Sequence record: KP869111
Direction: 5' to 3' (one strand)
Source: Escherichia coli O157 typing phage 13
DNA length: 64,000 nucleotides
The notes beneath the pieces are model-generated. The model ran no database searches. It was not told where the DNA came from and saw only the letters and a program-made list of their open reading frames with translations. Within the stretch, counting starts at the first letter, position 1. Each line of letters starts with the position of its first letter. This document shows positions 7,968-34,880 of the stretch, in pieces. The translations under genes were made by a program, and so were the position numbers.

Positions 7968-8039
7968 AAGTACCTCTTGGCTCAATTCATAGGTCTATTA
8001 TATCATAATATTTAGAGACCTATCTTAAAGCACGAGATA

Positions 8040-8309
8040 CTATCGGAGCAAACAATAAGCCTGAAACACTTTTTCCATTAAACGTTTGAACTCATGGATA
8101 TCGATATAAAGCTCAGTAAGACCTGCATTATAAAGAAAATCTAAAAAGTTCTCATGTGTTTCGTTATAGTCGCCTTCGTTTAATTGAGATACATGAGTTT
8201 CCCAAAAACCAACACCTTTAACGAATGGAAAATACGTGACTTTCATGTATTCGTCAACATAAAATTCGCCCAGCTTTTCTTCAGTTATACTGATTCGAGT
8301 TAATTTCAT
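8040..8309 (-). CDS. Hypothetical protein
   Basis: 89 aa ORF, ATG start, ATGA overlap with upstream ORF. Confidence 0.5.
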   Translation of the reverse strand: MKLTRISITEEKLGEFYVDEYMKVTYFPFVKGVGFWETHVSQLNEGDYNETHENFLDFLYNAGLTELYIDIHEFKRLMEKVFQAYCLLR

Positions 8310-8533
8310 TCTAGTTCCTTTGCTGCTTCAAGAGCAGCATCCAGCGAATCAAATTGGTCAACGAAATCAATATTCAACGCATCGTCAACCGTAGCATATA
8401 ACCACCATTGTTTGAATTCGTATTCAAGAATAAATCCAGGACCTTCAATCTGAGGAAGACCTAGGCTATTTGTACCAACTTCGTAACCAGCTAGACGCAG
8501 GTCATTAATCAAAGTTTCTGTTAATACGCTCAT
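8306..8533 (-). CDS. Hypothetical acidic protein
   Basis: 75 aa ORF, ATGA-coupled to neighbours. Confidence 0.5.
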   Translation of the reverse strand: MSVLTETLINDLRLAGYEVGTNSLGLPQIEGPGFILEYEFKQWWLYATVDDALNIDFVDQFDSLDAALEAAKELE

Positions 8534-8862
8534 TTTGCCGCCTTAACAATTTTCAGGTCAACGAATTTTTTCTTACGTTGATTTTTCATACGACGGATAG
8601 TCTTTTCAGAGATTTCATGTTTCTGATAAGCTTTAGATTCAACACCAAATGCAGCAACGTCAAATTCAGAAAGAATATATTGTACTAGAATTTCACGAAT
8701 AGAATTACGTCCAATTTTCTGGTCGTGTTTTTGCATGATTTCATAAAGACGGAATTCCCACGCATCAAGAACTTGAGGAGTAACAATATTGCCAGATTCC
8801 AGAAGAGCAACAACTTTATCGAAAGCGAAAGAATTAACTACGTTTTTGATTTTAGTAGACAT
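8530..8862 (-). CDS. Hypothetical protein
   Basis: Track ORF 8530-8901; ATG at 8862 has a strong GAGGAA Shine-Dalgarno; basic C-terminus. Confidence 0.5.
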   Translation of the reverse strand: MSTKIKNVVNSFAFDKVVALLESGNIVTPQVLDAWEFRLYEIMQKHDQKIGRNSIREILVQYILSEFDVAAFGVESKAYQKHEISEKTIRRMKNQRKKKFVDLKIVKAAK

Positions 8863-8928
8863 ATTATTTTCCTCGGTTATTTTATTATCCAACGAGGGCA
8901 TTATACTCTGCTCTCAAGAGTCTGTACA

Positions 8929-9168
8929 CTATTTTTTAAGCATGAAAAGCAAGTAATTTGTATCGCGTGGGCTGATATCGACACCCATATCAAAGATACC
9001 TTTATATATTGGGTATTTGTTTTCGGTTGTATCGAAGCTGAAACTATTTCCATCACAACTAACAGTAATAGCATCTGTTAAAATGTCATACTCAATCCTA
9101 ACAATTGAATCCCCAATTTTAACGTCGAGGTGTTTTTTGAATTTGATAAAATCTAATTCTTGGGCCAT
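8929..9168 (-). CDS. Hypothetical protein
   Basis: 79 aa; GAGGAA Shine-Dalgarno before ATG at 9168. Confidence 0.5.
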   Translation of the reverse strand: MAQELDFIKFKKHLDVKIGDSIVRIEYDILTDAITVSCDGNSFSFDTTENKYPIYKGIFDMGVDISPRDTNYLLFMLKK

Positions 9169-9231
9169 GATATTTTCCTCATTTTAAGACGATAGGAAGT
9201 CATGTTATTATCTTCCTATCGTTGTATATTA

Positions 9232-9432
9232 TTAACCGAACTTTTTAGCGCCTTTCCAGCCTTCGTACATAACTGCGCAAGTCAATAGCACGGCATGTTG
9301 GCATTCTTTGTATTTGTAAATCCAGAACCAGCGTAAAAAGTCTTCATCCTCAACACCGTTGAGTTTCATATTGGCAAAGAATTCGGCACGTTCTTCACGA
9401 AGTTGCCATGACACAATATTTTCAGGATTCAT
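9232..9432 (-). CDS. Hypothetical protein
   Basis: Track ORF 9232-9444 starts with GTG; ATG at 9432 overlaps upstream stop (ATGA). Confidence 0.45.
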   Translation of the reverse strand: MNPENIVSWQLREERAEFFANMKLNGVEDEDFLRWFWIYKYKECQHAVLLTCAVMYEGWKGAKKFG

Positions 9433-9563
9433 TTTGTGTTCCACGCCCCATTTTCATCGATGAACTTAATCCAGTCATTTACAGACCATTTAGTTGTATC
9501 ACCCTTTGGATTAACATTTAAAGTATATAATCCCTGCTTAAAAAGCATTCGTTTGATATTCAT
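9429..9563 (-). CDS. Hypothetical small protein (start uncertain)
   Basis: Track ORF 9429-9656 overlaps upstream gene; ATG at 9563 with GAGGA gives 44 aa. Confidence 0.3.
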   Translation of the reverse strand: MNIKRMLFKQGLYTLNVNPKGDTTKWSVNDWIKFIDENGAWNTK

Positions 9564-9570
9564 AATTTCC

Positions 9571-9864
9571 TCAACTGTAACGATAACATTCGTTAGCTTT
9601 ACGTTTGGCTTCAGTATGAGAAGTATTATAATCATACTCTTCTTTACTGTAAACATCTTTTTTCAACTTACGAACTTCTTTGCGGAGTTGTCGATTCATT
9701 TCGTTCTTGACTTCAGAATCAACGCCTTTCATACGCTTCCATTTATCAGAGCGGAATATGTTTTCAACCATGTCTTTGTGGCTAACACCGTCAGGAGCTT
9801 TACGTTTACCAAAATAGTCATAATCGCGAACTTTCAAATCTTTACGACGATACGTTTTACCCAT
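9571..9864 (-). CDS. Hypothetical highly basic protein
   Basis: Track ORF 9571-9891 starts with TTG; ATG at 9864 with GAGGT Shine-Dalgarno; Lys/Arg-rich. Confidence 0.5.
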   Translation of the reverse strand: MGKTYRRKDLKVRDYDYFGKRKAPDGVSHKDMVENIFRSDKWKRMKGVDSEVKNEMNRQLRKEVRKLKKDVYSKEEYDYNTSHTEAKRKANECYRYS

Positions 9865-10299: not shown

Positions 10300-10328
10300 T
10301 TTATTTTCCTCTGTGGTAGATGGTGTTA

Positions 10329-10357
10329 ATCTTAACATATCTATCGAGGATGTAAAC
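10329..10357 (-). promoter_or_regulatory. T4-type early promoter (GTTTAC-N17-TAAGAT)
   Basis: Minus strand GTTTAC at 10357-10352, 17-nt spacer, TAAGAT at 10334-10329. Confidence 0.55.
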
Positions 10358-10439
10358 TGGTTTTATGAAAATATTTTTGATTTGAGAGGGGCACAAGGAG
10401 ATAGTGAAGTGAAGATTCCAATGGATTATATTAGAAATG

Positions 10440-10467
10440 AGATAAAGAAGACCAGGCGGCACCTGGT
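10440..10467 (-). terminator. Rho-independent terminator after the nrdH-like gene
   Basis: Minus strand GACCAGG-TGCCG-CCTGGTC followed by TTCTTTATCT; directly 3' of the nrdH-like stop. Confidence 0.6.
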
Positions 10468-10790
10468 CAATCTTCTATGATATCAGAGTCGTATCCTAAT
10501 GAAATCAAGGACTTTTTAAACTCTGCAATATTCTTTTGTTTCTTATCATTTAAAAATATGACAGGATAACGAATATTAAGTGAAGTGAATCCTGCACGTT
10601 TAGCAAGAGATACGATTAAAGGTCGGTCATATTCAATCTTACCATTATTAGTGAGGACTTTATAAAATGTATAAGGAGCATTGAGCTCCTTTAAAAGTTT
10701 TGTAACAGTATAACATCCTGGACAACGTCCTACTTCTTCAGGGATGCCATAAATTTCAATCTTGTTCTTTAAGTTCGAGTTTTGTTCCAC
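10467..10790 (-). CDS. nrdH: Glutaredoxin-like protein NrdH (probable GTG start)
   Basis: C-terminal 100 aa of track ORF 10467-10919 contains the redox motif CPGC (VGRCPGCYTVTKLL); the N-terminal part of the track ORF overlaps the neighbouring gene and is hydrophobic junk; GTG at 10790 has an AAGGA Shine-Dalgarno. Track and label coordinates disagree by 1 nt here. Confidence 0.6.
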   Translation of the reverse strand: MEQNSNLKNKIEIYGIPEEVGRCPGCYTVTKLLKELNAPYTFYKVLTNNGKIEYDRPLIVSLAKRAGFTSLNIRYPVIFLNDKKQKNIAEFKKSLISLGYDSDIIED

Positions 10791-11402: not shown

Positions 11403-11873
11403 TTAATCATGTTTCCACACCCCATTGGTATTCGACCAAAGTCGCTGATTATCTGATCCTCGCCACAGTTTTTTGGTCGGAAGATTTTTCTCATACTTCC
11501 CATCAATAATAACATCAACATATTTAAGCATTTCTAGTTGTTTAATATCTTCAAACTTATATCCTGTCCACAACCAAATGCTTTTATTGGGATAAATATT
11601 TTTTACTGTTTGAACAATGCAATGAACAACATCTCTATTATCAGGATAGAGAGGGTCGCCTCCGGTTATAGTCAATCCTTCTATATAATCATTATTCAAA
11701 CATTCAATTAATTGTTCTAGTGTCTCTCCAGTGAATGGAGCACCATTTCTAGCGTTCCATGTTGATTTATTATAACACCCTTCACATTTATGCAAACAAC
11801 CTGTAACGAAAAGAACGACCCTGCAACCAGGGCCATTCACAAAATCGCAAGGATAAAATCTATCATAATTCAT
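11403..11873 (-). CDS. nrdG: Anaerobic ribonucleotide reductase activating protein NrdG (radical SAM)
   Basis: 156 aa, same as T4 NrdG; cysteine cluster CLHKCEGCYN typical of glycyl-radical activases. Confidence 0.9.
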   Translation of the reverse strand: MNYDRFYPCDFVNGPGCRVVLFVTGCLHKCEGCYNKSTWNARNGAPFTGETLEQLIECLNNDYIEGLTITGGDPLYPDNRDVVHCIVQTVKNIYPNKSIWLWTGYKFEDIKQLEMLKYVDVIIDGKYEKNLPTKKLWRGSDNQRLWSNTNGVWKHD

Positions 11874-14157: not shown

Positions 14158-14163
14158 GATAAA

Positions 14164-14186
14164 CCCTTACCTTAAATAGATAAGGG
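14164..14186 (-). promoter_or_regulatory. Hairpin sequestering the gene 49 ribosome-binding site
   Basis: Minus strand CCCTTA-(11 nt loop)-TAAGGG; the 3' arm TAAGGG lies 6 nt upstream of the gene 49 ATG. Confidence 0.55.
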
Positions 14187-14194
14187 TATTTATA
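14187..14194 (-). promoter_or_regulatory. Late promoter TATAAATA for gene 49
   Basis: Exact TATAAATA on the minus strand immediately 5' of the hairpin; a transcript initiating here would lack the 5' arm. Confidence 0.6.
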
Positions 14195-14384
14195 ATTTAG
14201 TAAACGTTATAAAAGTCTCGATGGAAACGCTTATACTGACGAATCATTCTTTTAGTAGGACGAGTTTCTGAAATAATTGAAGTCCTCATATTTGGATTGT
14301 TTGGGGCCCAATCATAATAAATTTCCAGGATTTTTGCCCATTTTTTCTTTCGCCATAAAATAGTTCAGTTTTCATAATAAGCCC

Positions 14385-14799: not shown

Positions 14800-14970
14800 T
14801 CAATATTCTCTATAAAAGTTACGATGAGAACGTTTAGCTTTGCGAAGCTGACGTTTAGTAGGACGAACTGTAAATGGTTGTCCAGAGAAAAAATTCGGAT
14901 CGGTTTTAATAAGCAAATACCAATCATGTTTGCCATTTTTTAATAAACGGTACAATAATTTAACTTGCAT
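14800..14970 (-). CDS. Hypothetical small basic protein
   Basis: Track ORF starts with TTG at 14997; ATG at 14970 with GGAAGAG upstream; 56 aa with a basic C-terminus. Confidence 0.4.
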   Translation of the reverse strand: MQVKLLYRLLKNGKHDWYLLIKTDPNFFSGQPFTVRPTKRQLRKAKRSHRNFYREY

Positions 14971-15019
14971 AATAATCTCTTCCCATTTCCATATCAATTA
15001 ATTCATTTATTGAAGGTTC

Positions 15020-15049
15020 ATCATAACACGTTTCTTCGTCGTTGTAAAC
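15020..15049 (-). promoter_or_regulatory. T4-type early promoter (GTTTAC-N18-TATGAT)
   Basis: Minus strand GTTTAC at 15049-15044 and TATGAT at 15025-15020; two hairpins lie just upstream at about 15046-15098. Confidence 0.5.
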
Positions 15050-15098
15050 TGTTTCGACGTCTGGCTCGACCGTCTCCCATCGAGCCGAATACCACGGT

Positions 15099-16121: not shown

Positions 16122-16426
16122 TATAATGTTCTCTCAAATTTGTGGAAGCATTTACGGCATTTCAATTTCAAGTTATCACTGGTCCAGTTAACCAGTTGGA
16201 CTTGGATAGTTCCACATTCCGGACATGGATGTTTTGCTGCCGATTTGGCAGCATTTTCACGTCGTTCAACCATTTTCATGATTTCGTTCCATGCTGGAGG
16301 AACGAACTCTTCTTCACCGTGGATTTTATCTCGCTGAACAAATTCAATCTTTGAACTATCGTCAATAAACTTAACCAAGCGGTGATTAGTGTTCATATCA
16401 ATATCCTCTAAAAGACGTAGTTTCAT
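16121..16426 (-). CDS. Hypothetical zinc-ribbon protein
   Basis: 101 aa; CPECG...CRKC four-cysteine motif at the C-terminus. Confidence 0.5.
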   Translation of the reverse strand: MKLRLLEDIDMNTNHRLVKFIDDSSKIEFVQRDKIHGEEEFVPPAWNEIMKMVERRENAAKSAAKHPCPECGTIQVQLVNWTSDNLKLKCRKCFHKFERTL

Positions 16427-17370
16427 TATAACACCTCAATGGCATTTCGTAAACCATCCGCTTTCGCATTCAGAGCTTTTAACGATTTAGTCTGTTCTTT
16501 AATCTGGGCTTCGACTTCTTTCAGACGAGATTTGAGATATTCGCGTTCTTCGGCCATGATATCGACCTTTTCTGCTTTAGGTTCTTTAATAGGCTTAAAC
16601 ACATTAGGGTTCTTCAGTTTAATTTTAATTCGAGAACTGAATAACATTGAACCGTTATCTTCGGTTTCGTCGAACATTTCAACAACATCCATAGTCTGTA
16701 ACATCATGCGAAGTTTATAAGACAGAGAACGAATGGTTTTGTTGCGCTTATTAATTTCTTCGGCTTTCATGGTACCGAGATTACGTGAGTAATAATAAGG
16801 AACCTGGATATCAATTGATAACGATGCGTTACCATTACCAGTTGGTTTGAATACTGCAGTAACCCAATCTTTAACATGAACTTTATTTGTACGACCATCG
16901 CCGCCTGTGAATAATTTACGTGAATGTTTAAAAAGCATATTCACTTGGTTATTGAATTCACAAGCAAATTTATCAGCAAATTTAGTTTCAGGAATGGTGG
17001 AGAACCAATCAGCTAAATGAGTCTTTTTAACATCATTAACAATAGTGAATTCAACCAAATCGGTTTTAGATGTCACAGATTTAATAAAGCTCGGTTTCAT
17101 AAAGTTTTTAATGTTATCACGAGCCACAGTAGAAGATAATAAACGAGAACGTTTGAACCATTGAAGCAACGTCCCTAATGAATGAGAATATGCATTTTGA
17201 GTATCTTTACAGATATGATTTTCTTGGCCTGTGTATGTACCAAAATCGCGAAGAATACCACTTACTACATCTCGGTGTGGAACATCAAATCCTAATGAAC
17301 CAGAAGCACGTTGGGCATGAACGTTAGCGATAAGACCTGCAAAGTATTCAATGTAATGTGAACGTGTCAT
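16426..17370 (-). CDS. Hypothetical protein with C-terminal coiled coil (tandem set member 1)
   Basis: 314 aa; ATG with AGGAAAA Shine-Dalgarno; C-terminal heptad-like segment EEREYLKSRLKEVEAQIKEQTKSLKALNAKADGLRNAIEVL; own early promoter upstream. Confidence 0.6.
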   Translation of the reverse strand: MTRSHYIEYFAGLIANVHAQRASGSLGFDVPHRDVVSGILRDFGTYTGQENHICKDTQNAYSHSLGTLLQWFKRSRLLSSTVARDNIKNFMKPSFIKSVTSKTDLVEFTIVNDVKKTHLADWFSTIPETKFADKFACEFNNQVNMLFKHSRKLFTGGDGRTNKVHVKDWVTAVFKPTGNGNASLSIDIQVPYYYSRNLGTMKAEEINKRNKTIRSLSYKLRMMLQTMDVVEMFDETEDNGSMLFSSRIKIKLKNPNVFKPIKEPKAEKVDIMAEEREYLKSRLKEVEAQIKEQTKSLKALNAKADGLRNAIEVL

Positions 17371-17398
17371 AATATTTTCCTCTCGTTAAGATAGATTC

Positions 17399-17428: not shown

Positions 17429-17432
17429 TATT

Positions 17433-25282: not shown

Positions 25283-25309
25283 ATATACCTCTTGGTTAGA
25301 TATTAGTAT

Positions 25310-25891: not shown

Positions 25892-25900
25892 AAGAGTCCC

Positions 25901-26286: not shown

Positions 26287-26495
26287 AACCATGTCACCTT
26301 TAAGCAATATTCTTCTACATGTTGTTTACGGCCTTTCTTATCAATAAAGGTATATTCAACGAATGTTCCGATGTAGTCTTTATCTACATCATGTGGACTA
26401 TTAATTGGACATTTGGTACGACAAATGCGTTCCCATTGACGAATAATTACTGCCTTATTCTTTGGGTCATATGGATGTGGATAATGTATATTCAT
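26283..26495 (-). CDS. Hypothetical protein
   Basis: Track ORF starts with TTG; ATG at 26495 (MNIHYPHPYDP...) overlaps upstream stop; 70 aa. Confidence 0.45.
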   Translation of the reverse strand: MNIHYPHPYDPKNKAVIIRQWERICRTKCPINSPHDVDKDYIGTFVEYTFIDKKGRKQHVEEYCLKVTWL

Positions 26496-26989
26496 AATAA
26501 CGGTTCCCAATCAACAATCACAATTTCTAGTTTAGTGGAATACGTATCTAAAATCTCTTCGATGACATCCCAGTTTCCGCCACCGATACCTGCACCAATT
26601 CTTGGCATATAAATTACAGGCTTTGTTATCTTATTCTTTCCGAATTCATTTAATTCTATTATACAATTCATTAAAGCAGAGTACTCAAAATTAGGTCCCG
26701 GCTCAAACTGCGTATAAAGATTAAAGCAATAAGCTTTATGGGTCTTAAAATATTTTTCATAAACCGAATAAGTCCCGAGTTTAGACTCGTCTCCGAATTC
26801 GGTTTGAAGTTTATCGGCTTCCAGAATTTTTGGATAAGCCTTTGCTAATTGTCCTGCCACACCGGCGCCCATTGTATGAAAACAATTACACCCATGAGCA
26901 ATATTATTACCTTTAGAAAACAGGGCGACAATATCGCCCTTGATATAGTTTTTAATCACTTGCTGCAAGTCCTCTAGTATAAGAGTCAA
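26492..26989 (-). CDS. Macrodomain-like protein (candidate ADP-ribose binding/hydrolase); start codon uncertain (TTG/GTG)
   Basis: 165 aa; two glycine-rich loops at macrodomain-like spacing: HTMGAGVAGQLAKAYP and IYMPRIGAGIGGGNW; no in-frame ATG near the N-terminus. Confidence 0.5.
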   Translation of the reverse strand: MTLILEDLQQVIKNYIKGDIVALFSKGNNIAHGCNCFHTMGAGVAGQLAKAYPKILEADKLQTEFGDESKLGTYSVYEKYFKTHKAYCFNLYTQFEPGPNFEYSALMNCIIELNEFGKNKITKPVIYMPRIGAGIGGGNWDVIEEILDTYSTKLEIVIVDWEPLL

Positions 26990-27299
26990 CTAGACGGTCC
27001 ACCATAGAATTGCATGCTGCCTTATCTTTAGGTTCCGCCACCGAGCATTCTAATATTTGCCATTTTTTATAGTATCTTTTAATTAAGGTAGACGCCTTGA
27101 ACCTACTAGACGCCCCATCTTTTTCTCCGTCTTTATACGCGTATAACAATTTTTGTGAAAAATCTACTTTACACTCTTGACTTTTACCACAATAATCAGA
27201 CGCCGTTCTGTTTGTATACTCCGTTACATCAGTATATGTAGTATTAGCAAGAGCGTTAAATGAAACCAAGCTAACTATTAAAGCCAACATTTTGGTCAT
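26952..27299 (-). CDS. Secreted protein with signal peptide (T4 vs position by synteny)
   Basis: 115 aa (the T4 Vs length); N-terminal MTKMLALIVSLVSFNALA signal peptide; four Cys; ATGA-coupled to the upstream gene. Confidence 0.5.
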   Translation of the reverse strand: MTKMLALIVSLVSFNALANTTYTDVTEYTNRTASDYCGKSQECKVDFSQKLLYAYKDGEKDGASSRFKASTLIKRYYKKWQILECSVAEPKDKAACNSMVDRLVDSYTRGLAASD

Positions 27300-27838
27300 T
27301 CTTTTATTTCCAGTAGTTTATTTGATTTAAGGTAATTAGCCTTTTCTAGGACTTCAGAAGCATATTTACTTCCAGCACTTGTCTTCCATCCCGCATTATA
27401 TGAGGATATGGCTTTTCTTATATCCCCGTTATGTATATTTAACCAATAAGAAAATTCGATATAAGCCCATCTGGCTGAATTAGACCGCTTAGATAGCATT
27501 TTCTTAATTTGGGCATCAGTCATATTATAACCAAGCTGGTTAATTCTTGCCCTCATTGTTGGTAGATAGTTTTGGAACATTCCATACGCATGGTGACCTT
27601 TCTTATCTTTAAGATTAATACCGGCAGATGATTCTTGCCATAGTATTGCGGCCATTATGTATCCAAGTCCTTTCTTATGCATATTTTCATGCGTTTTAAA
27701 TTTTCCATCCTTAGAAAACTGTTCCCCAAACTGATAAGCATAATTCAAGTTATCGAGTTGGACATTACTAAAAGTATGCTCGGAGCTATGTGCTGATAAC
27801 GAAAGAGCAAATAGACCAGCGAGTAGTGCTTTTCTCAT
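27296..27838 (-). CDS. Secreted lytic transglycosylase-like protein (SLT domain candidate)
   Basis: 180 aa; signal peptide MRKALLAGLFALSLSAHS; motif AAILWQESSAGINLKDKKGHHAYGMFQ resembles the SLT catalytic Glu-Ser and GLMQ-type motifs. Confidence 0.55.
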   Translation of the reverse strand: MRKALLAGLFALSLSAHSSEHTFSNVQLDNLNYAYQFGEQFSKDGKFKTHENMHKKGLGYIMAAILWQESSAGINLKDKKGHHAYGMFQNYLPTMRARINQLGYNMTDAQIKKMLSKRSNSARWAYIEFSYWLNIHNGDIRKAISSYNAGWKTSAGSKYASEVLEKANYLKSNKLLEIKE

Positions 27839-27846
27839 GTTTACCT

Positions 27847-28305
27847 CTAGATTTTAATCACTGCTTTAGAAGCTTTTCCTGGTAGTCGTTTACTGTTAAT
27901 AATAGCCATTCTGCATTGAAGAGTCTTCATTTTGAATGCTGGATTTTCGCGACAAACTGTAAGTCCTAACCAAAGATTTCCATCAGTTATTTCTAAACGG
28001 CCTGGGCGATATTCGACACCTTCGACAAAATCTTCATCAACATCTGGACGGGCTGGCATTGATAAAAATTCTGCAACTTCTTTAACATGATTTTTTACTT
28101 TATGAAATAATTCAAAAACGTAATTCTCATCTATTTCTCTCTGGATGGCACGATCTAAGAGATGTTGAGAATACTTGATATGAAAGCCTGGTAGTCCAAG
28201 AGACTTTGCAGCATCTTTTATACTGGCATTTATTTTGCGGAACTCCGTTTCAAAGATTCGACGGAGTTTATTGCGGCGGATAAAAACGTCTGAATTGATA
28301 GTCAT
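27847..28305 (-). CDS. regB: Endoribonuclease RegB
   Basis: 152 aa; MTINSDVFIRRNKLRR...YSQHLLDRAIQREIDE...GVEYRPGRLEITDGNLWLG...LQCRMAIINS.RLPGKASKAVIK matches recalled T4 RegB (153 aa). Confidence 0.75.
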   Translation of the reverse strand: MTINSDVFIRRNKLRRIFETEFRKINASIKDAAKSLGLPGFHIKYSQHLLDRAIQREIDENYVFELFHKVKNHVKEVAEFLSMPARPDVDEDFVEGVEYRPGRLEITDGNLWLGLTVCRENPAFKMKTLQCRMAIINSKRLPGKASKAVIKI

Positions 28306-28313
28306 TTTGATTT

Positions 28314-28354
28314 CTCCTCTAGTTGACAGGTCTATAGTAACACAACTAGAGGAG
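28314..28354 (-). promoter_or_regulatory. 12-bp inverted repeat sequestering the regB Shine-Dalgarno
   Basis: CTCCTCTAGTTG (28314-28325) and CAACTAGAGGAG (28343-28354); on the mRNA the 3' arm carries GAGGAG 8 nt before the regB ATG. Confidence 0.55.
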
Positions 28355-28362
28355 AAGTAAAC
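28334..28362 (-). promoter_or_regulatory. T4-type early promoter located within the regB hairpin
   Basis: Minus strand GTTTAC (28362-28357), 17-nt spacer, TACTAT (28339-28334); -10 lies in the loop of the inverted repeat. Confidence 0.55.
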
Positions 28363-28661
28363 TACTCTTTGAAAGGAATTAACTTTTTAACTGCTTTAGA
28401 TACTTCGTCACGAACCTGGTGGAAGTTCTTGAGCTGTTCAAGGCGTTGTTCGTAATACGCAATCTCATCTTCTTCAAGACAATCGTCAGCGTCTTCTTTC
28501 AGATATGCCTTGTACTCATTAAAGAGGGCCCATAGGCGGTTCTCAAAGTCATCAAGGCTTTGAATTTTCTTGTGCTTCGGAACAAGGCCAAAAGGATTGC
28601 TTTCAGTTATGCGTCGAGATGCTTCATAATGAGTTCCAAAGCCTGATAGGATTTGAGCCAT
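28362..28661 (-). CDS. Hypothetical protein
   Basis: Track ORF 28362-28703; ATG at 28661 overlaps upstream stop; 99 aa. Confidence 0.5.
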
Positions 28662-28906
28662 TAGTATTTTTCCTCTGGTTGAAATACCGCACGACAAGCC
28701 CACATACTAGCTTCCTTTAGGCGTTCTTTAGCACAGTTCAATTGGGACAAAGCTGTCAAAGCTTCAGGAGTATTCGCAGACAACGCTTCTTCCGCCAAGG
28801 CATCGAAAATAAGCCCTAATCGAACTTCTGCATCTTTAATAGCGTTCACTTTACCGATTTTATCATCGGTATGCGGCTTGTAGCCTTTGATGTCTTCAAT
28901 CGACAT
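28661..28906 (-). CDS. Hypothetical protein
   Basis: Track ORF 28661-29074; ATG at 28906 with GAGGAA Shine-Dalgarno gives 81 aa ([16 protein letters not shown]...). Confidence 0.45.
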
Positions 28907-29120
28907 AAGGAATTTCCTCATCGGTGGCAAGGTCATATTCGACCAATTGGATAGGCTCATTAATACCATATCCACGTACAGTGATATCGGTTGTCGGATA
29001 TTTTCCAGTAATATCACCCATTCTAAATGCTTCAGTGAATGATTGCTCGCCTGAGCAACTAAACCAGGCGGCAAAACATTTTAAAACATCTTCAGACCCT
29101 TCTATAATCAATTTAGCCAT
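28896..29120 (-). CDS. Hypothetical protein
   Basis: 74 aa ORF; start abuts the stop of the glycyl-radical cofactor gene. Confidence 0.45.
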   Translation of the reverse strand: MAKLIIEGSEDVLKCFAAWFSCSGEQSFTEAFRMGDITGKYPTTDITVRGYGINEPIQLVEYDLATDEEIPYVD

Positions 29121-29482
29121 TATAGACTCTCAGTAAAGGTACGAGCGATAACGTCGCGCTGCTGTTCCGGGGTCAGAGAGTTAAAGCGAACTGCATAACC
29201 GGATACACGGATGGTCAGCTGTGGATATTTTTCCGGATGCTTAACTGCATCTTCCAGAGTTTCGCGACGCAGAACGTTAACGTTCAGATGTTGACCACCT
29301 TCAATTTTAACTTTAGGTTGATGTTCAATTTCAATTTCACGGGCATTCAAACCGTAGAAAATTTCCGGGTCTACAATAGCGTCTTCTTTAAAAGTCTTAG
29401 AGACGATAATCCGGGCTTGAGTACCGTCTTCAAAATAAATAGTGCCTTTATGTGCACCTTCAAGAATTTGATATGCTTTCAT
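29120..29482 (-). CDS. Autonomous glycyl radical cofactor (GrcA/YfiD-like)
   Basis: 120 aa; C-terminal glycyl radical motif [25 protein letters not shown]; T4 is known to encode a YfiD homologue in this region. Confidence 0.8.
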
Positions 29483-29488
29483 ATAACC

Positions 29489-29797
29489 TCAATTAGAAAA
29501 TAAATTTATCCAAGTTTTTTCTTTAATCAAAAATGGGTCAGAACTAAACGCCATTAAACTTTGAGTGATTAATCCCTTAAATGGCCCATCAATAAATTCC
29601 ATTTTGAAATGCGGAATACTAGTCATCAACCGTGCGTTAGGAGCAGTACAAAGAACCTGCTGCCCTGCGAACGGACCTTTAGTCAAACGGTATCGTTTAG
29701 GTTTAAAATGGTAAATCTCGTAATTTTCTACAAGAGCCCTTTTATTGCATACTGGGCTGTTATAACAATATTCAAAAACTTCAATAGTGGTCATCAT
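29489..29797 (-). CDS. Hypothetical protein
   Basis: 102 aa; ATGA overlap with upstream gene. Confidence 0.5.
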   Translation of the reverse strand: MMTTIEVFEYCYNSPVCNKRALVENYEIYHFKPKRYRLTKGPFAGQQVLCTAPNARLMTSIPHFKMEFIDGPFKGLITQSLMAFSSDPFLIKEKTWINLFSN

Positions 29798-30333
29798 TGC
29801 ATTCCAATCACAAAAAATTGAGGACGAGCATTACCGCCGATGCAATATTTGCTTTTGCAGCAGTACTGTACTGTTTTAATATGGACATTGTAAATCTTAT
29901 CCATATCAGGAGCTTTAATAGGCTCGTCAATTATATACAGAATACGAGAAAGCGTTAATCCACGGAATTTAGAACCTTCATTGCCAATAAAACTACGAAC
30001 AGAATCAGTAAATAAACGGAATCGAATATCATCGCTAGAATAACGAGAAAATTCTTTTTCAATGTTACCAGCAGAAATTTTAGCATAAGCTGAAGTATTA
30101 GAAAGAACAATAACTGTTCCGCCATCATACAGCCAATTAGCAGCAAAGTTAGTCACAGCAATTGATTTACCGGATTGTCTGCCACCGTCTAAACGAAGTG
30201 TACAGTACTGCTTGAGTACGTCTTCAAACGGTGGGATATAACCGTTCTTACAAATTTCTTCTACTCTAGCATCAGAATGGTGTGTAAAAGCATTCATCAG
30301 GGATAGATAAGGTCCAGTTAAAAATGTTCTCAT
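29794..30333 (-). CDS. Small P-loop NTPase-like protein
   Basis: 179 aa; Walker A-like LDGGRQSGKS and Walker B-like RILYIIDEP. Confidence 0.5.
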   Translation of the reverse strand: MRTFLTGPYLSLMNAFTHHSDARVEEICKNGYIPPFEDVLKQYCTLRLDGGRQSGKSIAVTNFAANWLYDGGTVIVLSNTSAYAKISAGNIEKEFSRYSSDDIRFRLFTDSVRSFIGNEGSKFRGLTLSRILYIIDEPIKAPDMDKIYNVHIKTVQYCCKSKYCIGGNARPQFFVIGMQ

Positions 30334-30369
30334 TTAGTTTCTCTTTTATGTTGGGCCATTCCGTGGCAC

Positions 30370-30399
30370 ATGTTAGGTCCTTCGACTCGCTATGTAAAC
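30370..30399 (-). promoter_or_regulatory. Early promoter-like element (GTTTAC-N18-TAACAT)
   Basis: Minus strand GTTTAC at 30399-30394 and TAACAT at 30375-30370, within the 173-nt noncoding gap 30334-30506. Confidence 0.4.
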
Positions 30400-30506
30400 C
30401 CATTACCGCACTTGGGCTCGACATTATTACAGGTTGGAAAAGGTACATCACTCAGAGGACTCGACGTTCATGAGGAGAGGTTGCGTTTCCCTTTATTAGG
30501 CAAGAA

Positions 30507-30932
30507 TTATACTCTAGGCTTTTGAGCTTGTTTGGTATTGGATTCCCATGCGGCTTTGGTAATTTTGTTAGTGGCATAACCAAAGGCATTAGATAGAACA
30601 CCTTTAGAGTTGAATACATCCAATCCAATAAGTACACCGGCTGTGTTAAATTTAGGAGCAAAGTACGCATTAGTTTTAGAAAGAGCTTTTTTCAATTCNN
30701 NNNNNNNNNNNNNNNNNNNNNNNNNNNNNNNNNNNNNNNNNNNNNNNNNNNNNNNNNNNNNNNNNNNNNNNNNNNNNNNNNNNNNNNNNNNNNNAGGGTC
30801 TTGAACCAAACCATCAAAAACGCCTTTACTATTTACTTTATATGTTACTTTGGGATTTTTACCTTCTTCGATAGCAGCTTTCTGTTCCGCAGATAATGTA
30901 ACTTCAGTGATAAACTCCTGATATGTTTTCAT
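30507..30932 (-). CDS. Internal head protein-like (capsid targeting sequence); interior masked by N-run
   Basis: Starts MKTYQEFITEV, the T4 internal-protein capsid-targeting leader; 96 N (30699-30794) inside the ORF. Confidence 0.6.
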   Translation of the reverse strand: MKTYQEFITEVTLSAEQKAAIEEGKNPKVTYKVNSKGVFDGLVQDPXXXXXXXXXXXXXXXXXXXXXXXXXXXXXXXXELKKALSKTNAYFAPKFNTAGVLIGLDVFNSKGVLSNAFGYATNKITKAAWESNTKQAQKPRV

Positions 30933-30940
30933 TTTGTTCC

Positions 30941-31354
30941 TTAGTAAATTGATTTACCATAGTATTTGTACCAAGTCGGACGTTGAGCAATTTTTTCATC
31001 TAAGCGTGCTTGACTTATCGCAATGGACGCTTCGGACGGGACGTAATTATTACGAAATTCTACAGGAATGTCGGAAATATCCTGGACTGTCGTGTCCTTG
31101 ATTTTGAAACCACGTTTCAAGCATTCGGCGATTAGCTCGATTTGACGTAAACGTAAAAATTCGAGTTTGTCGTAAAAGAATGTTACGTGACCTGTGCCTA
31201 AGATAAATGTTGGAGAGATTTTAAAATCCTTTACACGTTTACCGTTTTGAACATGTTTACGGACTGCACCAAATACGCGTGGTAATTCACGATACTCAGC
31301 CATAAGATGTTGGTCGGACAGTTCAGAAACAAGTGTTAAATTGATACGAGTCAT
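30941..31354 (-). CDS. denV: Endonuclease V (pyrimidine dimer DNA glycosylase) DenV
   Basis: Track ORF 30941-31366; ATG at 31354 gives [35 protein letters not shown], near-identical to recalled T4 DenV (138 aa). Confidence 0.9.
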
Positions 31355-31381
31355 AATTTCCTCCAAGTAGTTGATGAATGT

Positions 31382-31411
31382 ATAGTATCAAAACTCTTGG
31401 AGGAAGTAAAC
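31382..31411 (-). promoter_or_regulatory. T4-type early promoter upstream of denV
   Basis: Minus strand GTTTAC (31411-31406), 18-nt spacer, TACTAT (31387-31382). Confidence 0.5.
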
Positions 31412-31412
31412 A

Positions 31413-31694
31413 CTATTTTTCTGAAGCGCCTGAAATATATTTTTCAAGACGTTGTTTCATCAGCGAGCCGTTCTTAGCGATTTCTTCCGGTTTATCGCAC
31501 ATACGCAACAAGGCTTCAAGCTTAACGATATCACTGGTGCGCTCAAATTTGCGAGTATCTATCTTACTGGCAAGTTCAGAAATACGTGCTAATAGACTTT
31601 CAGCTTCAACCAAAGCTGCACCTAGCTTAGTTGCAAATGTGTCAGTAGCTTCGTTAAGAATAGATTCTGATAAAAATTCACTATATGTTTTCAT
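31413..31694 (-). CDS. Internal head protein-like (capsid targeting sequence)
   Basis: ATG at 31694 overlaps the e stop (ATGA) and gives [11 protein letters not shown]..., 93 aa. Confidence 0.55.
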
Positions 31695-32179
31695 ATATAC
31701 GCTTTCCAAGTTCCTGTTTTAAATGTTGAGATTACGCGTTTCGCTCGATTAGGTGTCTGACGGTACCATTTAGATTGGGCTAGATTTACTGCCGCTTCAT
31801 CCCAACGTTTCTGTTGAAGCATACGAAGAGAATTAGTAAAACCAGCGACGCCTGCTACACCCATTTGGAAGACCATATTGACCAATGCACATCGACGAAC
31901 CGCATCTAAAGAATCATATACCGGTTTAAGTTTAGCATTACCCAAGATTCCGCGAACGGCTTTATCAACGTCTTCATTAAATAGCTTTTCAGCCTCATCA
32001 AGGGTAATTGTACCGTTGCATTTACGTCCGATCATTCTGTCAAGTTCAGCTTTAGCTACGGCTAAAGACGGGTTCTTTGTTACTAAATGGCCTATGCCAA
32101 TCGTCCAAAAGCCTTCAGTGTCTTTGTATAAAGTCAGTCTAAGACCTTCGTCATTACGAAGCATTTCAAATATATTCAT
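31691..32179 (-). CDS. e: Lysozyme (endolysin) e
   Basis: Track ORF 31691-32191; ATG at 32179 preceded by GGGAGGT gives [31 protein letters not shown], near-identical to recalled T4 lysozyme. Confidence 0.93.
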
Positions 32180-32180
32180 A

Positions 32181-32206
32181 ATACCTCCCACGTTTATAGG
32201 AGGTAT
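32181..32206 (-). promoter_or_regulatory. Hairpin sequestering the e gene Shine-Dalgarno, with late-promoter-like sequence in the loop
   Basis: Minus strand ATACCTCC-TATAAACGTG-GGAGGTAT; the 3' arm is the Shine-Dalgarno; loop reads TATAAACG (6/8 match to TATAAATA). Confidence 0.5.
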
Positions 32207-32213
32207 TTATTAC

Positions 32214-32669
32214 TTATAGGATGGTAGTGAGCACCTTATATAATGATTTACCCATTACATATTCCCATTGAGAAGGTTTAATTAAAGCGAATGCATCAAA
32301 TTCAGGAATCTGTCGTCCGTCTGGGAATGTATGATAGGAATTACAAACACTGTTTCTGAATTGCTCGTGCTCTACAGGGATGGTATATAGGAACAGATGA
32401 ATATTCTTATTGTCTGAGTAATGATGTTCACCTAGGTCTTTCAGGAAGGCAGGGTCATATTGTGTAAACCCAGTTTCTTCTTCGCATTCACGAATAGCGG
32501 CTTCAATAGGAGATTCGCCAGGTTCGACACGGCCTTTAGGAATATCCCACCGATGAGTTAATGCACCTTTAGGACGAGAACCAGTTACACGCCCCATGAA
32601 TAACTCTTTATCTTCGGTAAGGAAAATAATACCGGCTGATAGCTCTTTCACTTTATTTTTCTTACTCAT
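32214..32669 (-). CDS. nudE: Nudix hydrolase NudE
   Basis: 151 aa, the T4 NudE length; Nudix box GRVEPGESPIEAAIRECEEETG. Confidence 0.85.
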   Translation of the reverse strand: MSKKNKVKELSAGIIFLTEDKELFMGRVTGSRPKGALTHRWDIPKGRVEPGESPIEAAIRECEEETGFTQYDPAFLKDLGEHHYSDNKNIHLFLYTIPVEHEQFRNSVCNSYHTFPDGRQIPEFDAFALIKPSQWEYVMGKSLYKVLTTIL

Positions 32670-32988
32670 CANNNNNNNNNNNNNNNNNNNNNNNNNNNNN
32701 NNNNNNNNNNNNNNNNNNNNNNNNNNNNNNNNNNNNNNNNNNNNNNNNTCGGTCCCATGATTTGGCCATTAATTCGGACATAAATTCTTCAATGCGCGTT
32801 TCTTTAGATGGACTTTCACTATTAGAGACCGCAAGTTTGTAATCTGCAATAGGACAGAACATATCAAGGTCCGTATTAAGGTCGTCTTTGATTTTTTCTT
32901 CTGACACATCTTTATCGTATGTGTACAGATAACTATCACATGATTCTGATTTAATGTAAATTGCTATACTCATCTCAAATTCCTGCAT
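32662..32988 (-). CDS. Hypothetical protein (C-terminal part masked by N-run)
   Basis: 108 aa track ORF; 77 N (32672-32748) cover its 3' end and the nudE 5' leader, so the true end is unknown. Confidence 0.35.
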   Translation of the reverse strand: MQEFEMSIAIYIKSESCDSYLYTYDKDVSEEKIKDDLNTDLDMFCPIADYKLAVSNSESPSKETRIEEFMSELMAKSWDRXXXXXXXXXXXXXXXXXXXXXXXXXXDE

Positions 32989-33461
32989 TCGGTAATAAAA
33001 CGTTCAACTTCATTATTCTTGGCCTTTATCTTGTCTTTATGTTCTTGTAAACTACTTTTAATAAGATTAATAATGATGGCGGCGGTACCGCCGCCAATGA
33101 TGCCACCAACAACACTTATGATACTAGATGCTAATAAGATAGCAATAATATCAACAAAACTGAAAGAACTCACCTTAGTACTAAAAAACCATACCGACGG
33201 TGCAAATATAATCCATCCTGTTATCCATTGGCACTTATTGAAAAACTTTTCAAGATCAGCTTGAGTTGTTCGTATTACTTCATCGATAGGTTGATATCCA
33301 TTAATGTATCTGTTCACAATAATACCTGCTGGCTGGTCGATTTTAAATTCTTGGCAAATACGTTTCACTAAGTAGGATGGACATCCTGTCCAATCTACTG
33401 AATAGTATGAAATACCTTCATTGCCATCGTCTATATTAGACCAATATGTTTTGTTAATCAT
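32970..33461 (-). CDS. Hypothetical membrane protein
   Basis: 163 aa; hydrophobic segments WITGWIIFAPSVWFF and IIAILLASSIISVVGGIIGGGTAAIIINLI. Confidence 0.5.
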   Translation of the reverse strand: MINKTYWSNIDDGNEGISYYSVDWTGCPSYLVKRICQEFKIDQPAGIIVNRYINGYQPIDEVIRTTQADLEKFFNKCQWITGWIIFAPSVWFFSTKVSSFSFVDIIAILLASSIISVVGGIIGGGTAAIIINLIKSSLQEHKDKIKAKNNEVERFITECRNLR

Positions 33462-34147
33462 TACCAGCCTTCCATAGGGAATTCCAGATAAACTTGGGTA
33501 TTGACACGAATTTCATTGGTAATCTTTTTAACTCGGTCTGTATTACGAGATACACGTCCGAACCAACGCCATCCATTACTAATTGCACGAGAACCAGTGT
33601 GCCATGTTTGCCAATCAAACTGAAGAAGAGTACGATCTGGAGCTTCCCATTTCTCTAGTTCGCCTTTTTCGATTTTTTCGAGGACTTCTTTGTGCCACTG
33701 GCGATAGATAAGTTCGCCATCAGGAATCTGACTGAACTCTGCAGTTCCTGTTGCAAAATGAGTAGGACACACATCAGCGTTAACAAGACCAAGAATATGT
33801 TCAGACAAATAGCGAGGATTGTCATAGTCAGGTTGTCCTGCAGTAATAAAATGTTGACCAACCGGAATATCCGGGCGTGGTACGTCATCATGGTGATAAC
33901 CAGGAATAGCAGGATACCAACCAGGCATCAGCATATGGACTCGTGAATCAAATACTACATCCGAGTCTTTCCAATCGTCAGGGAGATTTTGGATAAAGCT
34001 ACGAGTAATTGGACCGCCGTTATCAAAAGCAAAATTCAAATCGCAATTAAAGAACATAGGCTCGTTTTTAATCTGGTCATTTTTAATCGCATGAGCAAAA
34101 CCACCTACTGCACGAGCTTGACTATTAAACACTTTAGAACTATTCAT
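33461..34147 (-). CDS. Hypothetical protein (possible metal-dependent oxygenase-like fold, unverified)
   Basis: 228 aa; His/Asp-rich segment PGYHHDDVPRPD and later WHTGSR; no confident family assignment from sequence alone. Confidence 0.5.
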   Translation of the reverse strand: MNSSKVFNSQARAVGGFAHAIKNDQIKNEPMFFNCDLNFAFDNGGPITRSFIQNLPDDWKDSDVVFDSRVHMLMPGWYPAIPGYHHDDVPRPDIPVGQHFITAGQPDYDNPRYLSEHILGLVNADVCPTHFATGTAEFSQIPDGELIYRQWHKEVLEKIEKGELEKWEAPDRTLLQFDWQTWHTGSRAISNGWRWFGRVSRNTDRVKKITNEIRVNTQVYLEFPMEGW

Positions 34148-34148
34148 A

Positions 34149-34454
34149 TTATTTTCCTCGACATTCTTTAATGAAATTTTCTAGATTGGTAGATTCAATA
34201 GCTTTTTTACGAGCTTCTGCGTGTTCTTCTTCAGACAATTTACATTTATAATTGACCCAGACGTTATGGTCGAAACTAGTCGTGGCATATAATAACAATG
34301 CTCCAACGAATAGCAAAAACGGCGATAAGAATACAAAACCAGGAACACCATCCATACTGTAAGCCTTTTGTAATACTGCAACAGAAAGAGCTGCGTAAAA
34401 AAGTGATACAAATATTGTTAAAAGACCAATTCGGTTGGTTTCGCCTAATTTCAT
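34149..34454 (-). CDS. Hypothetical membrane protein
   Basis: 101 aa; two hydrophobic helices then a charged C-terminus; first gene after the promoter at 34483-34512. Confidence 0.5.
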   Translation of the reverse strand: MKLGETNRIGLLTIFVSLFYAALSVAVLQKAYSMDGVPGFVFLSPFLLFVGALLLYATTSFDHNVWVNYKCKLSEEEHAEARKKAIESTNLENFIKECRGK

Positions 34455-34482
34455 AATATTCTCCTCATGTTTTAATAGGACT

Positions 34483-34512
34483 ACTATAACATAGCCCTAT
34501 CAAGATGTAAAC
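34483..34512 (-). promoter_or_regulatory. T4-type early promoter inside a palindromic cassette (copy of 24222-24260)
   Basis: Minus strand GTTTACATCTTGATAGGGCTATGTTATAGTAGTCCTA; 35 of 37 nt identical to the cassette at 24222-24260. Confidence 0.6.
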
Positions 34513-34515
34513 TAC

Positions 34516-34803
34516 TTACAGAAGAGTTTTTGCAATAATTTTAAGCTGAGCTACAGAAATATGCTTAGCTTTAAACAGTGCGGTCTCTTCAGCCGGAGAG
34601 ATAACAATAGTAGCGCCATCTTTCTTAGCAGACCATCCATCCCCTAAGTAAACAGTACCTTTTACTTCTTCGCCGTCAACCAGACTAATCATTGGTTTAC
34701 CCTCACGTCCTTTATTTGCTTTAATAACTTCGGAAGTAAGGGTTGCTTCGGTCAGAGTAGAAACGTTAGCAACAGGTGATATAAATTCTTTATAGGTTTT
34801 CAT
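34516..34803 (-). CDS. ipI: Internal protein I-like (capsid targeting sequence)
   Basis: 95 aa (the T4 IPI precursor length); starts MKTYKEFISPV with a TLTE-A protease-type site; sits next to 57B as ipI does in T4. Confidence 0.6.
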   Translation of the reverse strand: MKTYKEFISPVANVSTLTEATLTSEVIKANKGREGKPMISLVDGEEVKGTVYLGDGWSAKKDGATIVISPAEETALFKAKHISVAQLKIIAKTLL

Positions 34804-34837
34804 TTTATTTCCTTGAGGTTGTTTATTTGATAGGATG

Positions 34838-34867
34838 ATAGTATCACACCATCATACTTATGTAAAC
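34838..34867 (-). promoter_or_regulatory. T4-type early promoter upstream of the ipI-like gene
   Basis: Minus strand GTTTAC (34867-34862), 18-nt spacer, TACTAT (34843-34838). Confidence 0.5.
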
Positions 34868-34880
34868 TGTTTTGTGAAAA

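Follow-up and report, generated by a model that had tools for sequence, protein, structure and literature searches.

Early promoters of phages T4 and RB69 share a GTTTAC element at -36 to -31, a spacer of 17±1 nt and a TGn followed by TAnnnT, with C at -3 to -1 (PMC1524935, PMC2988021). Nolan et al. predicted 57 of them in RB69 (PMC1524935), and Hinton describes those of T4 as UP, -35, TGn and -10 elements plus extra conserved regions (PMC2988021). In the PeSL elements of RB49/phi1, T4/PST and KVP40/nt-1 (Arbiol et al. 2010; Comeau et al. 2014), a sigma70-type promoter belongs to a composite of stop codon or terminator, AT-rich stretch, promoter, stem-loop (often over the -10), Shine-Dalgarno (SD) sequence and ATG. 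Arbiol et al. found that the stem-loop most commonly lies between the promoter boxes or overlaps the -10, noted G-T pairs, and located the crossovers either in the stem-loop itself or in the interval from the -10 to the SD/ATG; experiments with RB49 and phi1 revealed that exchanges between such cassettes do occur (PMC2839356). The PeSL papers also allow for "degraded" PeSLs. Here we analyzed 64,000 nt of Escherichia coli O157 typing phage 13 (sequence record KP869111; this whole stretch is "the window"), which carries a family of repeated promoter cassettes. From sequence comparison, we conclude that these cassettes are very probably T4-type early promoters packaged as PeSL-like modules, an element of known kind, through which recombination would bring about gene gain and loss.

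A megablast search with positions 20000-36000 of the window returned 100% identity to E. coli O157 typing phages 3 and 6, and 93-98% identity to many other Mosigviruses. By this comparison the window is a Mosigvirus (RB69 group, T4-like), nearly identical to typing phages 3 and 6, and we carried the gene annotation over from the typing-phage records. The minus-strand early region occupies 6-38 kb and runs through gene 55, nrdG/nrdD, 49, pin, the nrdC.x genes, rI, tk, vs, regB and denV, and after denV through an ip gene, e, nudE, ipI, 57B/57A and gene 1; the plus strand from 38 kb on holds baseplate late genes. The assembly is gapped, because the window contains two runs of N, at 30699-30794 (96 bases) and 32672-32748 (77 bases), which break the gp247-like open reading frame (ORF) and the nudE/gp252 region. 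Rfam and tRNA scans of the window gave no matches, and it contains no tRNA gene.

Probable T4-type early promoters in the early region

The motif GTTTAC-N16-19-TANNNT has 13 matches on the minus strand of the window (9625-34867) and one on the plus strand, with a gap of 17 or 18 nt between GTTTAC and the -10 hexamer. Both strands together thus hold 14 matches where 3.75±1.64 were expected, and none of 100 shuffles reached that number; the excess, about 4-fold overall, falls almost wholly on the coding strand of the early region. A two-block matrix, built from the -35 block and the extended -10 block and applied at a threshold of at least 16 bits, returned 15 sites on the minus strand and none on the plus strand, compared with 0.4 in shuffles, an enrichment that is partly circular because 12 of these sites served as the training set. 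The matrix added the sites at 8929 and 21565 (GTGTAC), 11797 (GTTTGC) and 32961 (ATTTAC; 16.3 bits, with a poor GATAGT -10, within gp252), and the degenerate site at 18448 (ATGTAC) scored weakly, at 11 bits. A generic TTGACA/TATAAT scan of the window gave no enrichment (75 sites versus 69 expected, and 77 versus 68), which indicates that the signal is specific to the T4-type motif; showing no excess over shuffles, the generic scan itself was dropped as evidence. The same strand bias is found in typing phage 3, a full-length relative with 23 cassettes on the coding strand and one on the other, and in T4, with 21 sites and none. Finally, an unbiased repeat search over the whole 64-kb window returned these cassettes as its largest direct-repeat families (D1-D5, D9, D14 and D15).

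When we aligned the window sites on the -10, the consensus read.G.t.TGtTAtaAT, then (A)G(A/T)CCTATCAAC, with the extended -10 TG present in 12 of the 15 aligned sites as counted from the alignment. The region from -60 to -37 is somewhat richer in A+T (0.686, background 0.630, p=0.009) and in A (0.375, background 0.328, p=0.047), a modest effect that is missing where coding sequence or a terminator abuts the -35. The sites thus resemble T4/RB69 early promoters in -35, spacer, extended -10, UP-like region, C at -3 to -1, and placement on the coding strand of the early region. There is no essential difference, some window copies carrying GTGTAC, ATGTAC or GTTTGC, and their activity in the window is predicted. 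With these proposed elements (GTTTAC, TGn-extended TAnnnT, A-rich UP-like region and the start region (A)G(A/T)CCTATCAAC), host sigma70 RNA polymerase, still unmodified, would recognize the cassettes during the first minutes after infection.

As a separate observation, (A)G(A/T)CCTATCAACTAC is conserved just 3' of the -10 at 20089, 21565, 28362, 31411, 34512 and 34867. It spans the predicted start and the first 10 nt of the transcript, occurs also at several T4 promoters, and belongs to what is called the "extra consensus" of early promoters in T4.

The cassettes lie 20-45 nt upstream of an SD and ATG, and their positions are conserved with T4. Window cassettes occupy T4 early-promoter positions at 55.6, nrdC.8, nrdC.10, mobD.2, regB, denV and ipI; T4 itself carries the same elements in the intergenic regions at 55.6, nrdC.4, nrdC.8, nrdC.10, mobD.2, mobD.5, regB and denV, and further at ipII, ipIII, e.6, e.7, trna.4 and ipI. 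These T4 positions rest on sequence and on reviews, the T4 RefSeq record carrying no promoter features. The T4 regB promoter is stated to be a typical early promoter (PMC3014915), and T4 denV and mobD.5 transcripts were examined by primer extension (PMC1702504). Downstream of the window cassettes are orthologues of 55.2, 55.4, 55.6, nrdC.2, nrdC.3, nrdC.8, nrdC.10, mobD.2, regB, vs.8, denV and ipI; only two of the downstream genes have no T4 match.

A first-pass annotation of the window had described at least 14 intergenic minus-strand sites with T4 early-promoter architecture and a TA-rich -10, flanking small novel ORFs, and had proposed comparing their density with that of shuffled sequence. 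The architecture agrees with the published T4/RB69 consensus, and the density is well above that of shuffles. The count holds only if -35 variants are admitted, since exact GTTTAC sites number 13. The site at 9654 lies inside coding sequence, the one at 16454 sits astride the gp217/gp216 junction, and the one at 30370-30399 has a poor -10, TAACAT. Instead of novel ORFs, most cassettes precede conserved T4 orthologues.

Gene gain and loss at the cassettes

Relative to typing phage 3, 8.47 kb between ipI and gp255 is missing from the window. The missing segment corresponds to about 75174-83638 of NC_041863.1 and contains about 25 ORFs together with tRNA-Met and tRNA-Arg. The cassette at 34483-34512 combines two typing-phage-3 cassettes as an exact chimera: up to ...GGGCTATGTTATAGTAGTCCTAT, its upstream half is identical to the one adjoining ipI, and from CTATGTTATAGTAGTCCTATTAAAAC... 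on, its downstream half matches, again without a difference, the one that precedes gp255. The crossover falls within a 20-bp core, CTATGTTATAGTAGTCCTAT, that contains the -10 and the stem-loop. On this comparison, the cassette at 34455-34515 is most likely the scar of an 8.5-kb deletion through recombination between two cassette copies. The exact junction was absent from IMG/VR and from 50,697 phage records in which we sought it.

Comparable events are present in phage 6, mobillu, EP32a, LF82-41 and ATK47, all independent of the assembly of the window. Typing phage 6 carries a different deletion, of 8.1 kb, at whose junction another cassette pair has been joined into a chimera; mobillu and EP32a lack the single ORF next to ipI through a third pair; and in LF82-41 and ATK47 the slot is occupied by a different gene, ip7. 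Among Mosigviruses this slot contains gp098 or ip7 or is empty. Chimeric junctions are thus seen in the window, in phage 6 and in mobillu/EP32a, and at three junctions the chimera is clean, switching within the core that the two cassettes share. To these we added a breakpoint survey of the window and five genomes, comprising 17 distinct indel or replacement events in a region of which cassette intervals make up 5.1%. Breakpoints fell inside cassette intervals in 11 of 34 cases (binomial p=5.7e-7), and 9 of the 17 events had at least one end in a cassette (binomial p=1.1e-5). One more breakpoint lies at a repeated terminator, GGGGCTTTTTGGCAT, with no promoter there.

That terminator, AGCCCC...GGGGCTTTTTGGCAT, is itself a dispersed repeat, found at 24720-24748 of the window and, in typing phage 3, at about 30639-30673 and 31190-31230 (reverse complement); a promoterless copy forms an indel end in EP32a and LF82-41.

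The cassettes fall into subfamilies with shared cores of 20-54 bp, the identical cores being 20-45 bp long, despite unrelated flanking genes. Such identical cores would make them substrates for phage homologous recombination, and unequal exchange between two cassettes would delete, insert or swap the intervening genes while leaving one functional chimeric cassette. This role matches the PeSL mechanism of Arbiol, Comeau and Krisch, including the RB49/phi1 crossover positions, and the match is supported by our data. It also bears out two points of the first-pass annotation, namely the resemblance to PeSL cassettes, whose layouts and crossover positions agree with those of Arbiol et al. (PMC2839356), and the suggestion that cassette boundaries be compared with gene gain/loss breakpoints among relatives, where the enrichment given above was found. 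The near-identical copies it had listed are real, with corrections of register: the 35/37 identity between the cassettes near 24260 and 34512 requires a 2-nt offset (24224-24260 versus 34476-34512), and the near-copies given as 17401-17426 and 18422-18447 were 1 nt out of register; the sites at 24709 and 28362 do have GTTTACTTCTCCTC in common.

The genes flanking the near-copy at 18393-18448 are unrelated to those flanking 17371-17432. A tandem gene duplication behind the near-copies at 17428 and 18448 was considered and rejected, the three adjacent ORFs of 314-331 amino acids being mutually dissimilar.

According to PMC4122927, which cites them, Repoila et al. (1994) described direct repeats flanking the ip genes of T-even phages. 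As far as that citation goes, the locus (ipI and its neighbours) and the kind of repeat are the same as here; the family in the window reaches well past the ip locus, from gene 55 to 57B. Annotators had thus noticed such repeats before: the note that the depositors attached to ATK47 (KT184309.1, feature 22997-23305) describes ip7 in RB69 as "flanked by 43 bp direct repeat along with Ip9".

It is exceedingly improbable that the sites are chance sigma70-like matches in an AT-rich genome, with no promoter function. The generic scan did stay at shuffle level, and the sites at 30399, 9654 and 16454 are weak or intragenic, but chance accounts neither for a T4-type motif enriched about 4-fold, nearly all on the coding strand of the early region, nor for placement 20-45 nt upstream of SD/ATG at positions conserved with T4 early promoters. 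The promoters might instead be real but alike through convergence, with the indels arising from unrelated illegitimate events in which the cassettes play no role. Function constrains the -35 and -10 blocks, and in 8 of the 17 events neither end lies in or next to a cassette; yet the identical cores include the spacer and the region past the -10, which vary freely in other, equally good promoters, and the three clean chimeric junctions, the breakpoint enrichment (p=6e-7) and the RB49/phi1 exchanges (PMC2839356) make convergence very unlikely. For the 8.5-kb junction in particular, mis-assembly across repeated cassettes has in its favour the two N-runs of a gapped assembly and the lack of the junction in any other record or contig. 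We consider it unlikely, because the shared core of only 20-35 bp is below ordinary read length, typing phage 6 and four other complete genomes carry independent junctions of the same kind, and loss of the tRNA region would leave a genome similar in size to complete ones such as that of typing phage 6 (160.6 kb). Recombination between cassettes remains our reading of these junctions.

PeSL-like cassettes are elements of a known kind, and the early promoters of the RB69 group are already catalogued. What the window contributes is a clean scar of recombination and, within the RB69 branch, support for the PeSL model. In annotation, the cassette sites serve to define this phage group's early transcription units, and they also account for the coming and going of the e-to-ipI region, tRNA genes included, between near-identical isolates, which is relevant to comparing or engineering typing and therapeutic phages. 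Current understanding is not overturned by any of these findings.

Stem-loops and the regB and denV leaders

The cassettes are compact, at 55-170 bp, and consist of an upstream stop codon or terminator hairpin, the promoter, often a stem-loop spanning the -10, an SD and an ATG; with so compact a layout, each downstream gene or short gene group would be its own expression module. Minimal cassettes, at the nrdC.3-like, nrdC.8-like and mobD.2-like genes, regB, denV and gp255, are 55-62-bp spacers in which the upstream TAG or TAA abuts or overlaps the -35 (TAGTTTAC) and the SD and ATG lie 20-32 nt past the predicted start. Full cassettes, in which a GC-rich hairpin with a T-run and an AT-rich stretch precede the promoter, are found at 10300-10468, 21499-21616 and 24654-24754; T4 55.6 shows the same layout as the first of these. 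A canonical upstream terminator hairpin with a T-run is present at only 3-4 promoters.

Inverted repeats across the -10, which the first-pass annotation had ascribed to many copies, do occur, but stems of at least 7-8 bp are found in only about 6 of 16 window sites. The mobD.2-like cassette, for example, has a 13-bp stem (24239-24251 with 24220-24232; z=-6.1, the z values of single cassettes here and in Table 1 being those of the folding tool's own folds). In tests covering -33 to the ATG, with z taken against dinucleotide shuffles, 12 of 22 cassettes of typing phage 3 (mean z = -2.56) had z<-2, as did 9 of 21 in T4 (mean z = -2.1). In T4 the sense strand folded more stably than the antisense strand (p=0.025), whereas in typing phage 3 the difference was not significant (p=0.18). 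The sequence that follows the -10-spanning stems is A-rich and has no T-run, and a terminator scan called none of them.

These results support the view that the window cassettes fit the published PeSL definition, with a strong stem-loop in a subset only. They share the composite layout of PeSLs, lie likewise in hyperplastic regions and at indel/replacement breakpoints, and have the same crossover positions. They differ from PeSLs in that their stems are not of the G4...C4 type and lack a following T-run, only about half of the cassettes having a significant stem, and in that the majority do not flank ORFans but are promoters, conserved in position, of known early genes.

A hairpin with the conserved loop and closing sequence CAAGGA(T/C)G lies within the promoter spacer at 17405-17425, 18425-18445 and 19481-19500. 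It recurs in three consecutive intergenic regions in this phage and in T4, where the spacers are those of nrdC.3/.4, nrdC.4/.5 and nrdC.7/.8, and its stems covary (AACCA/TGGTT, GCCA/TGGC, CCACA/TGTGG, TACCA/TGGTA and CACCA/TGGTG).

At regB and denV, the stem involves the SD. The regB helix, of 14 bp, joins a 5' arm, TTCTCCTCTAGTTG (28343-28356), that fills the promoter spacer to a 3' arm, CAACTAGAGGAGAA (28312-28325), that contains the SD. The corresponding denV arms are TTCCTCCAAG (31396-31405), in the spacer, and CTTGGAGGAA (31358-31367), containing the SD, with a helix of 10 bp or more. If transcription starts about 7 nt past the -10, as we infer, a transcript from the cassette's own promoter would lack the 5' arm, so that the helix could form in read-through RNA only. 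Predicted SD accessibility differed accordingly between read-through RNA and own-promoter transcript, at 0.10 versus 0.58 for denV and 0.21 versus 0.48 for regB. The difference was weak for gp218 and gp202 and nil for most other cassettes; SD sequestration was therefore rejected as a family-wide property.

In orthologous leaders from IMG/VR contigs, the helix is kept while the inner sequences differ. Arm pairs at regB include CTAGTTG/CAACTAG, CTTGACTG/CAGTTAAG, CTTTATG/CATAAAG and TGTAAG/CTTACA, and those at denV include CCAAG/CTTGG, TGTAG/CTACA, GTTTG/CAAAC and TGTG/CACA; in other denV leaders the 5' arm lies across the end of the -10 and the +1 region. A MAFFT alignment of the regB leaders placed the stem arms out of register, and we instead aligned the arms by anchoring on CTCC and GGAG only. 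Cognate arms pair better than non-cognate arms (p<5e-5, a significance overstated by the phylogenetic relatedness of the orthologues). Paired cells amounted to 76.8%, compared with 62.2±2.0 in shuffles, and 53 cells were changed on both sides, compared with 22; such changes affect 8 of the 12 helix pairs, and G·U pairs occur. The covariation score was 0.375; shuffles gave 0.139 and slid controls 0.05-0.13 (maximum 0.126).

These data suggest that regB and denV would be translated only from promoter-proximal transcripts; their own-promoter transcripts, without the 5' arm, should be translatable. More broadly, we tentatively propose, as a serious possibility about which we remain somewhat doubtful, that at regB, denV and varying loci in T4-like phages (T4 nrdC.8, for example) the early promoter is nested in a hairpin in which the SD pairs either with the promoter spacer or with the -10/+1 region. 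In that case, only the gene's own early transcript, which is short-lived, would be translated. Read-through RNA, which would come from upstream early, middle or late promoters, would be silent and shielded from RegB cleavage at GGAG.

A 2010 review lists e, soc, 49 and I-TevI as the only promoter-in-hairpin cases. The SD of those genes, like that of regB and denV, is part of a helix with its 5' arm upstream of the proximal transcription start, but their internal promoter is of the late TATAAATA type, whereas at regB and denV it is of the early sigma70 type. The regB/denV helix thus resembles the e/49/soc/I-TevI devices in its predicted working, including the translational effect, and is not of the same class. 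An early-promoter version at regB and denV may be undescribed, although the older literature was not exhaustively covered, and this covarying spacer-SD helix is the only part of our results that appears to have some novelty. If functional, it would be an early-gene version of classical T4 translational control, extending the device from late to early promoters, and would bear on how synthesis of the RegB nuclease is confined to the first minutes of infection. If the nested-promoter proposal is true, PeSL stem-loops gain a second selected function, that of insulating the translation of each module, which could explain how cassettes are shuffled without disturbing neighbouring genes.

The classical late-promoter devices are kept in the window, at gene e (32180-32213) and gene 49 (14158-14196), each with a TATAAATA-type promoter and an SD-sequestering stem.

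What the stems do bears on two further explanations. In the original PeSL reading, the -10-spanning repeats act mainly as terminators or attenuators of upstream transcription. One RB49 PeSL stem-loop cut downstream lacZ about as much as rrnB T1 did (PMC2839356), and the window has canonical upstream terminators at 10450-10468, about 21585-21613 and 24720-24748. The -10-spanning stems themselves, with A-rich sequence after them and none called by the terminator scan, leave a terminator role here unsupported, and the SD-containing 3' arms of regB and denV, covarying with the spacer, point to translation rather than termination; we regard the terminator reading as rather unlikely. It is quite unlikely that the repeats act at the DNA level, as a cruciform or hairpin aiding promoter opening or recombination (through endonuclease VII, for instance) or as a palindromic site for a shut-off factor. 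Crossovers do map within the stem-loop core, the mechanism by which T4 early promoters are shut off is still unexplained (PMC3014915, PMC2988021), and the sense/antisense asymmetry is not significant in typing phage 3. Homology alone, however, predicts crossover inside the core; arm sequences vary while pairing is kept, which argues against a sequence-specific protein site; and the G·U pairs and the greater sense stability in T4 favour RNA.

Several observations weigh against our reading of the cassettes as early promoters in recombining, PeSL-like modules with RNA stems. Promoter function in this phage rests on the consensus and on T4 orthology, with the sites at 9654 and 16454 intragenic and that at 30399 weak. 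The window junction is unmatched in public records, and the window has N-runs; there are few breakpoint events, several of them at the same cassettes, and about half, as noted, end neither in nor next to a cassette. A significant stem is present in only about 40-55% of cassettes, those spanning the -10 are followed by A-rich and not U-rich sequence, and the asymmetry expected of an RNA stem lacks significance in typing phage 3 (p=0.18). The SD is occluded in only 2-4 of 15 cassettes, and relatedness among the orthologues inflates the covariation statistics.

Catalogue of sites and further observations

Table 1. Cassettes, promoter-like sites and associated hairpins in the window
Feature	Position	Strand	Elements
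Region upstream of gene 55 (repeat family D5)	7968-8039	-	ATAGGTCT..TATAAT..AGACCTAT stem, z=-1.0
55.2-like ORF, upstream cassette	8863-8929	-	TAG stop overlaps GTGTAC; N18, TATAAT, SD, ATG
Promoter-like site within 55.5-like ORF, upstream of 55.4-like ORF	9625-9654	-	GTTTAC-N18-TATAAT
55.6-like ORF, full upstream cassette	10300-10468	-	GTTTAC-N17-TAAGAT at 10329-10357, SD, ATG
Terminator hairpin of 55.6-like cassette	10450-10468	-	hairpin and T-run, then AT-rich stretch
nrdG internal site	11769-11797	-	GTTTGC-N17-TATAAT; matching site in T4
Cassette upstream of 56-amino-acid ORF without T4 match	14971-15098	-	GTTTAC-N18-TATGAT at 15020-15049
Hairpin of 14971-15098 cassette	15063-15086	-	no T-run
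nrdC.3-like/nrdC.2-like junction site	16425-16454	-	GTTTAC-N18-TATAAT
nrdC.3-like gene, minimal 62-bp cassette	17371-17432	-	GTTTAC, spacer hairpin AACCA-AGGA-TGGTT, TATAAT
Near-copy of 17371-17432 cassette (D15)	18393-18448	-	degraded -35 ATGTAC
nrdC.8-like gene, minimal cassette	20034-20091	-	GTTTAC-N17-TATTAT; AGGTCTAT/ATAGACCT stem across -10
nrdC.10-like gene, full cassette	21499-21616	-	GTGTAC-N17-TACTAT at 21537-21565
GC-rich hairpin of nrdC.10-like cassette	~21585-21613	-	hairpin and T-run, then AT-rich stretch
mobD.2-like ORF, minimal cassette (D3)	24203-24260	-	CTATGTTATAGTAGTCCTA(T/C) subfamily
Full cassette	24654-24754	-	GTTTACTTCTCCTC-..-TATAGT at 24681-24709, SD, ATG
Terminator of 24654-24754 cassette	24720-24748	-	AGCCCC..GGGGCT, then TTTTT
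regB cassette	28306-28362	-	GTTTAC, spacer arm, TACTAT, SD-containing arm; z=-4.9
vs.8-like gene, upstream site	30370-30399	-	GTTTAC-N18-TAACAT; weak, below matrix threshold
denV cassette	31355-31411	-	GTTTAC, spacer arm, TACTAT, SD-containing arm; z=-5.7
Chimeric cassette/deletion junction, upstream of gp255	34455-34515	-	promoter at 34483-34512
ipI cassette	34804-34880	-	A-rich upstream region; GTTTAC-N18-TACTAT at 34838-34867; weak stem only

Some entries call for comment. The site inside nrdG is possibly an internal promoter for nrdD. The function of the nrdC.3-like/nrdC.2-like junction site is doubtful, because its predicted start falls inside the downstream ORF, and we likewise doubt that the site upstream of the vs.8-like gene is a promoter. 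The region upstream of gene 55 has no GTTTAC and hence is not strictly an early-promoter cassette.

Middle-promoter-like sequences with a MotA box (TGCTT/GCTTTA) lie upstream of genes 47, gp219 and 1; these and the gene 55 region are at 6423-6491, 19444-19505, 36306-36358 and 7968-8039. The gene 47 site directly follows a terminator hairpin, in a "PmSL"-like layout. On four IMG/VR jumbo-phage contigs of 345-378 kb that encode denV homologues, GGGTTGACTTCGGTCAGCCCTTTTTGCTATAAT is found about 60 nt upstream of position 1501. It is a terminator hairpin whose stem holds a -35 TTGAC and whose T-run serves as the spacer, forming a compact composite of terminator and promoter. Finally, a direct repeat at 14208-14263 and 14811-14866 (73% over 56 nt), which is not a promoter cassette, lies in the small ORFs gp209 and gp212 that flank pinA.

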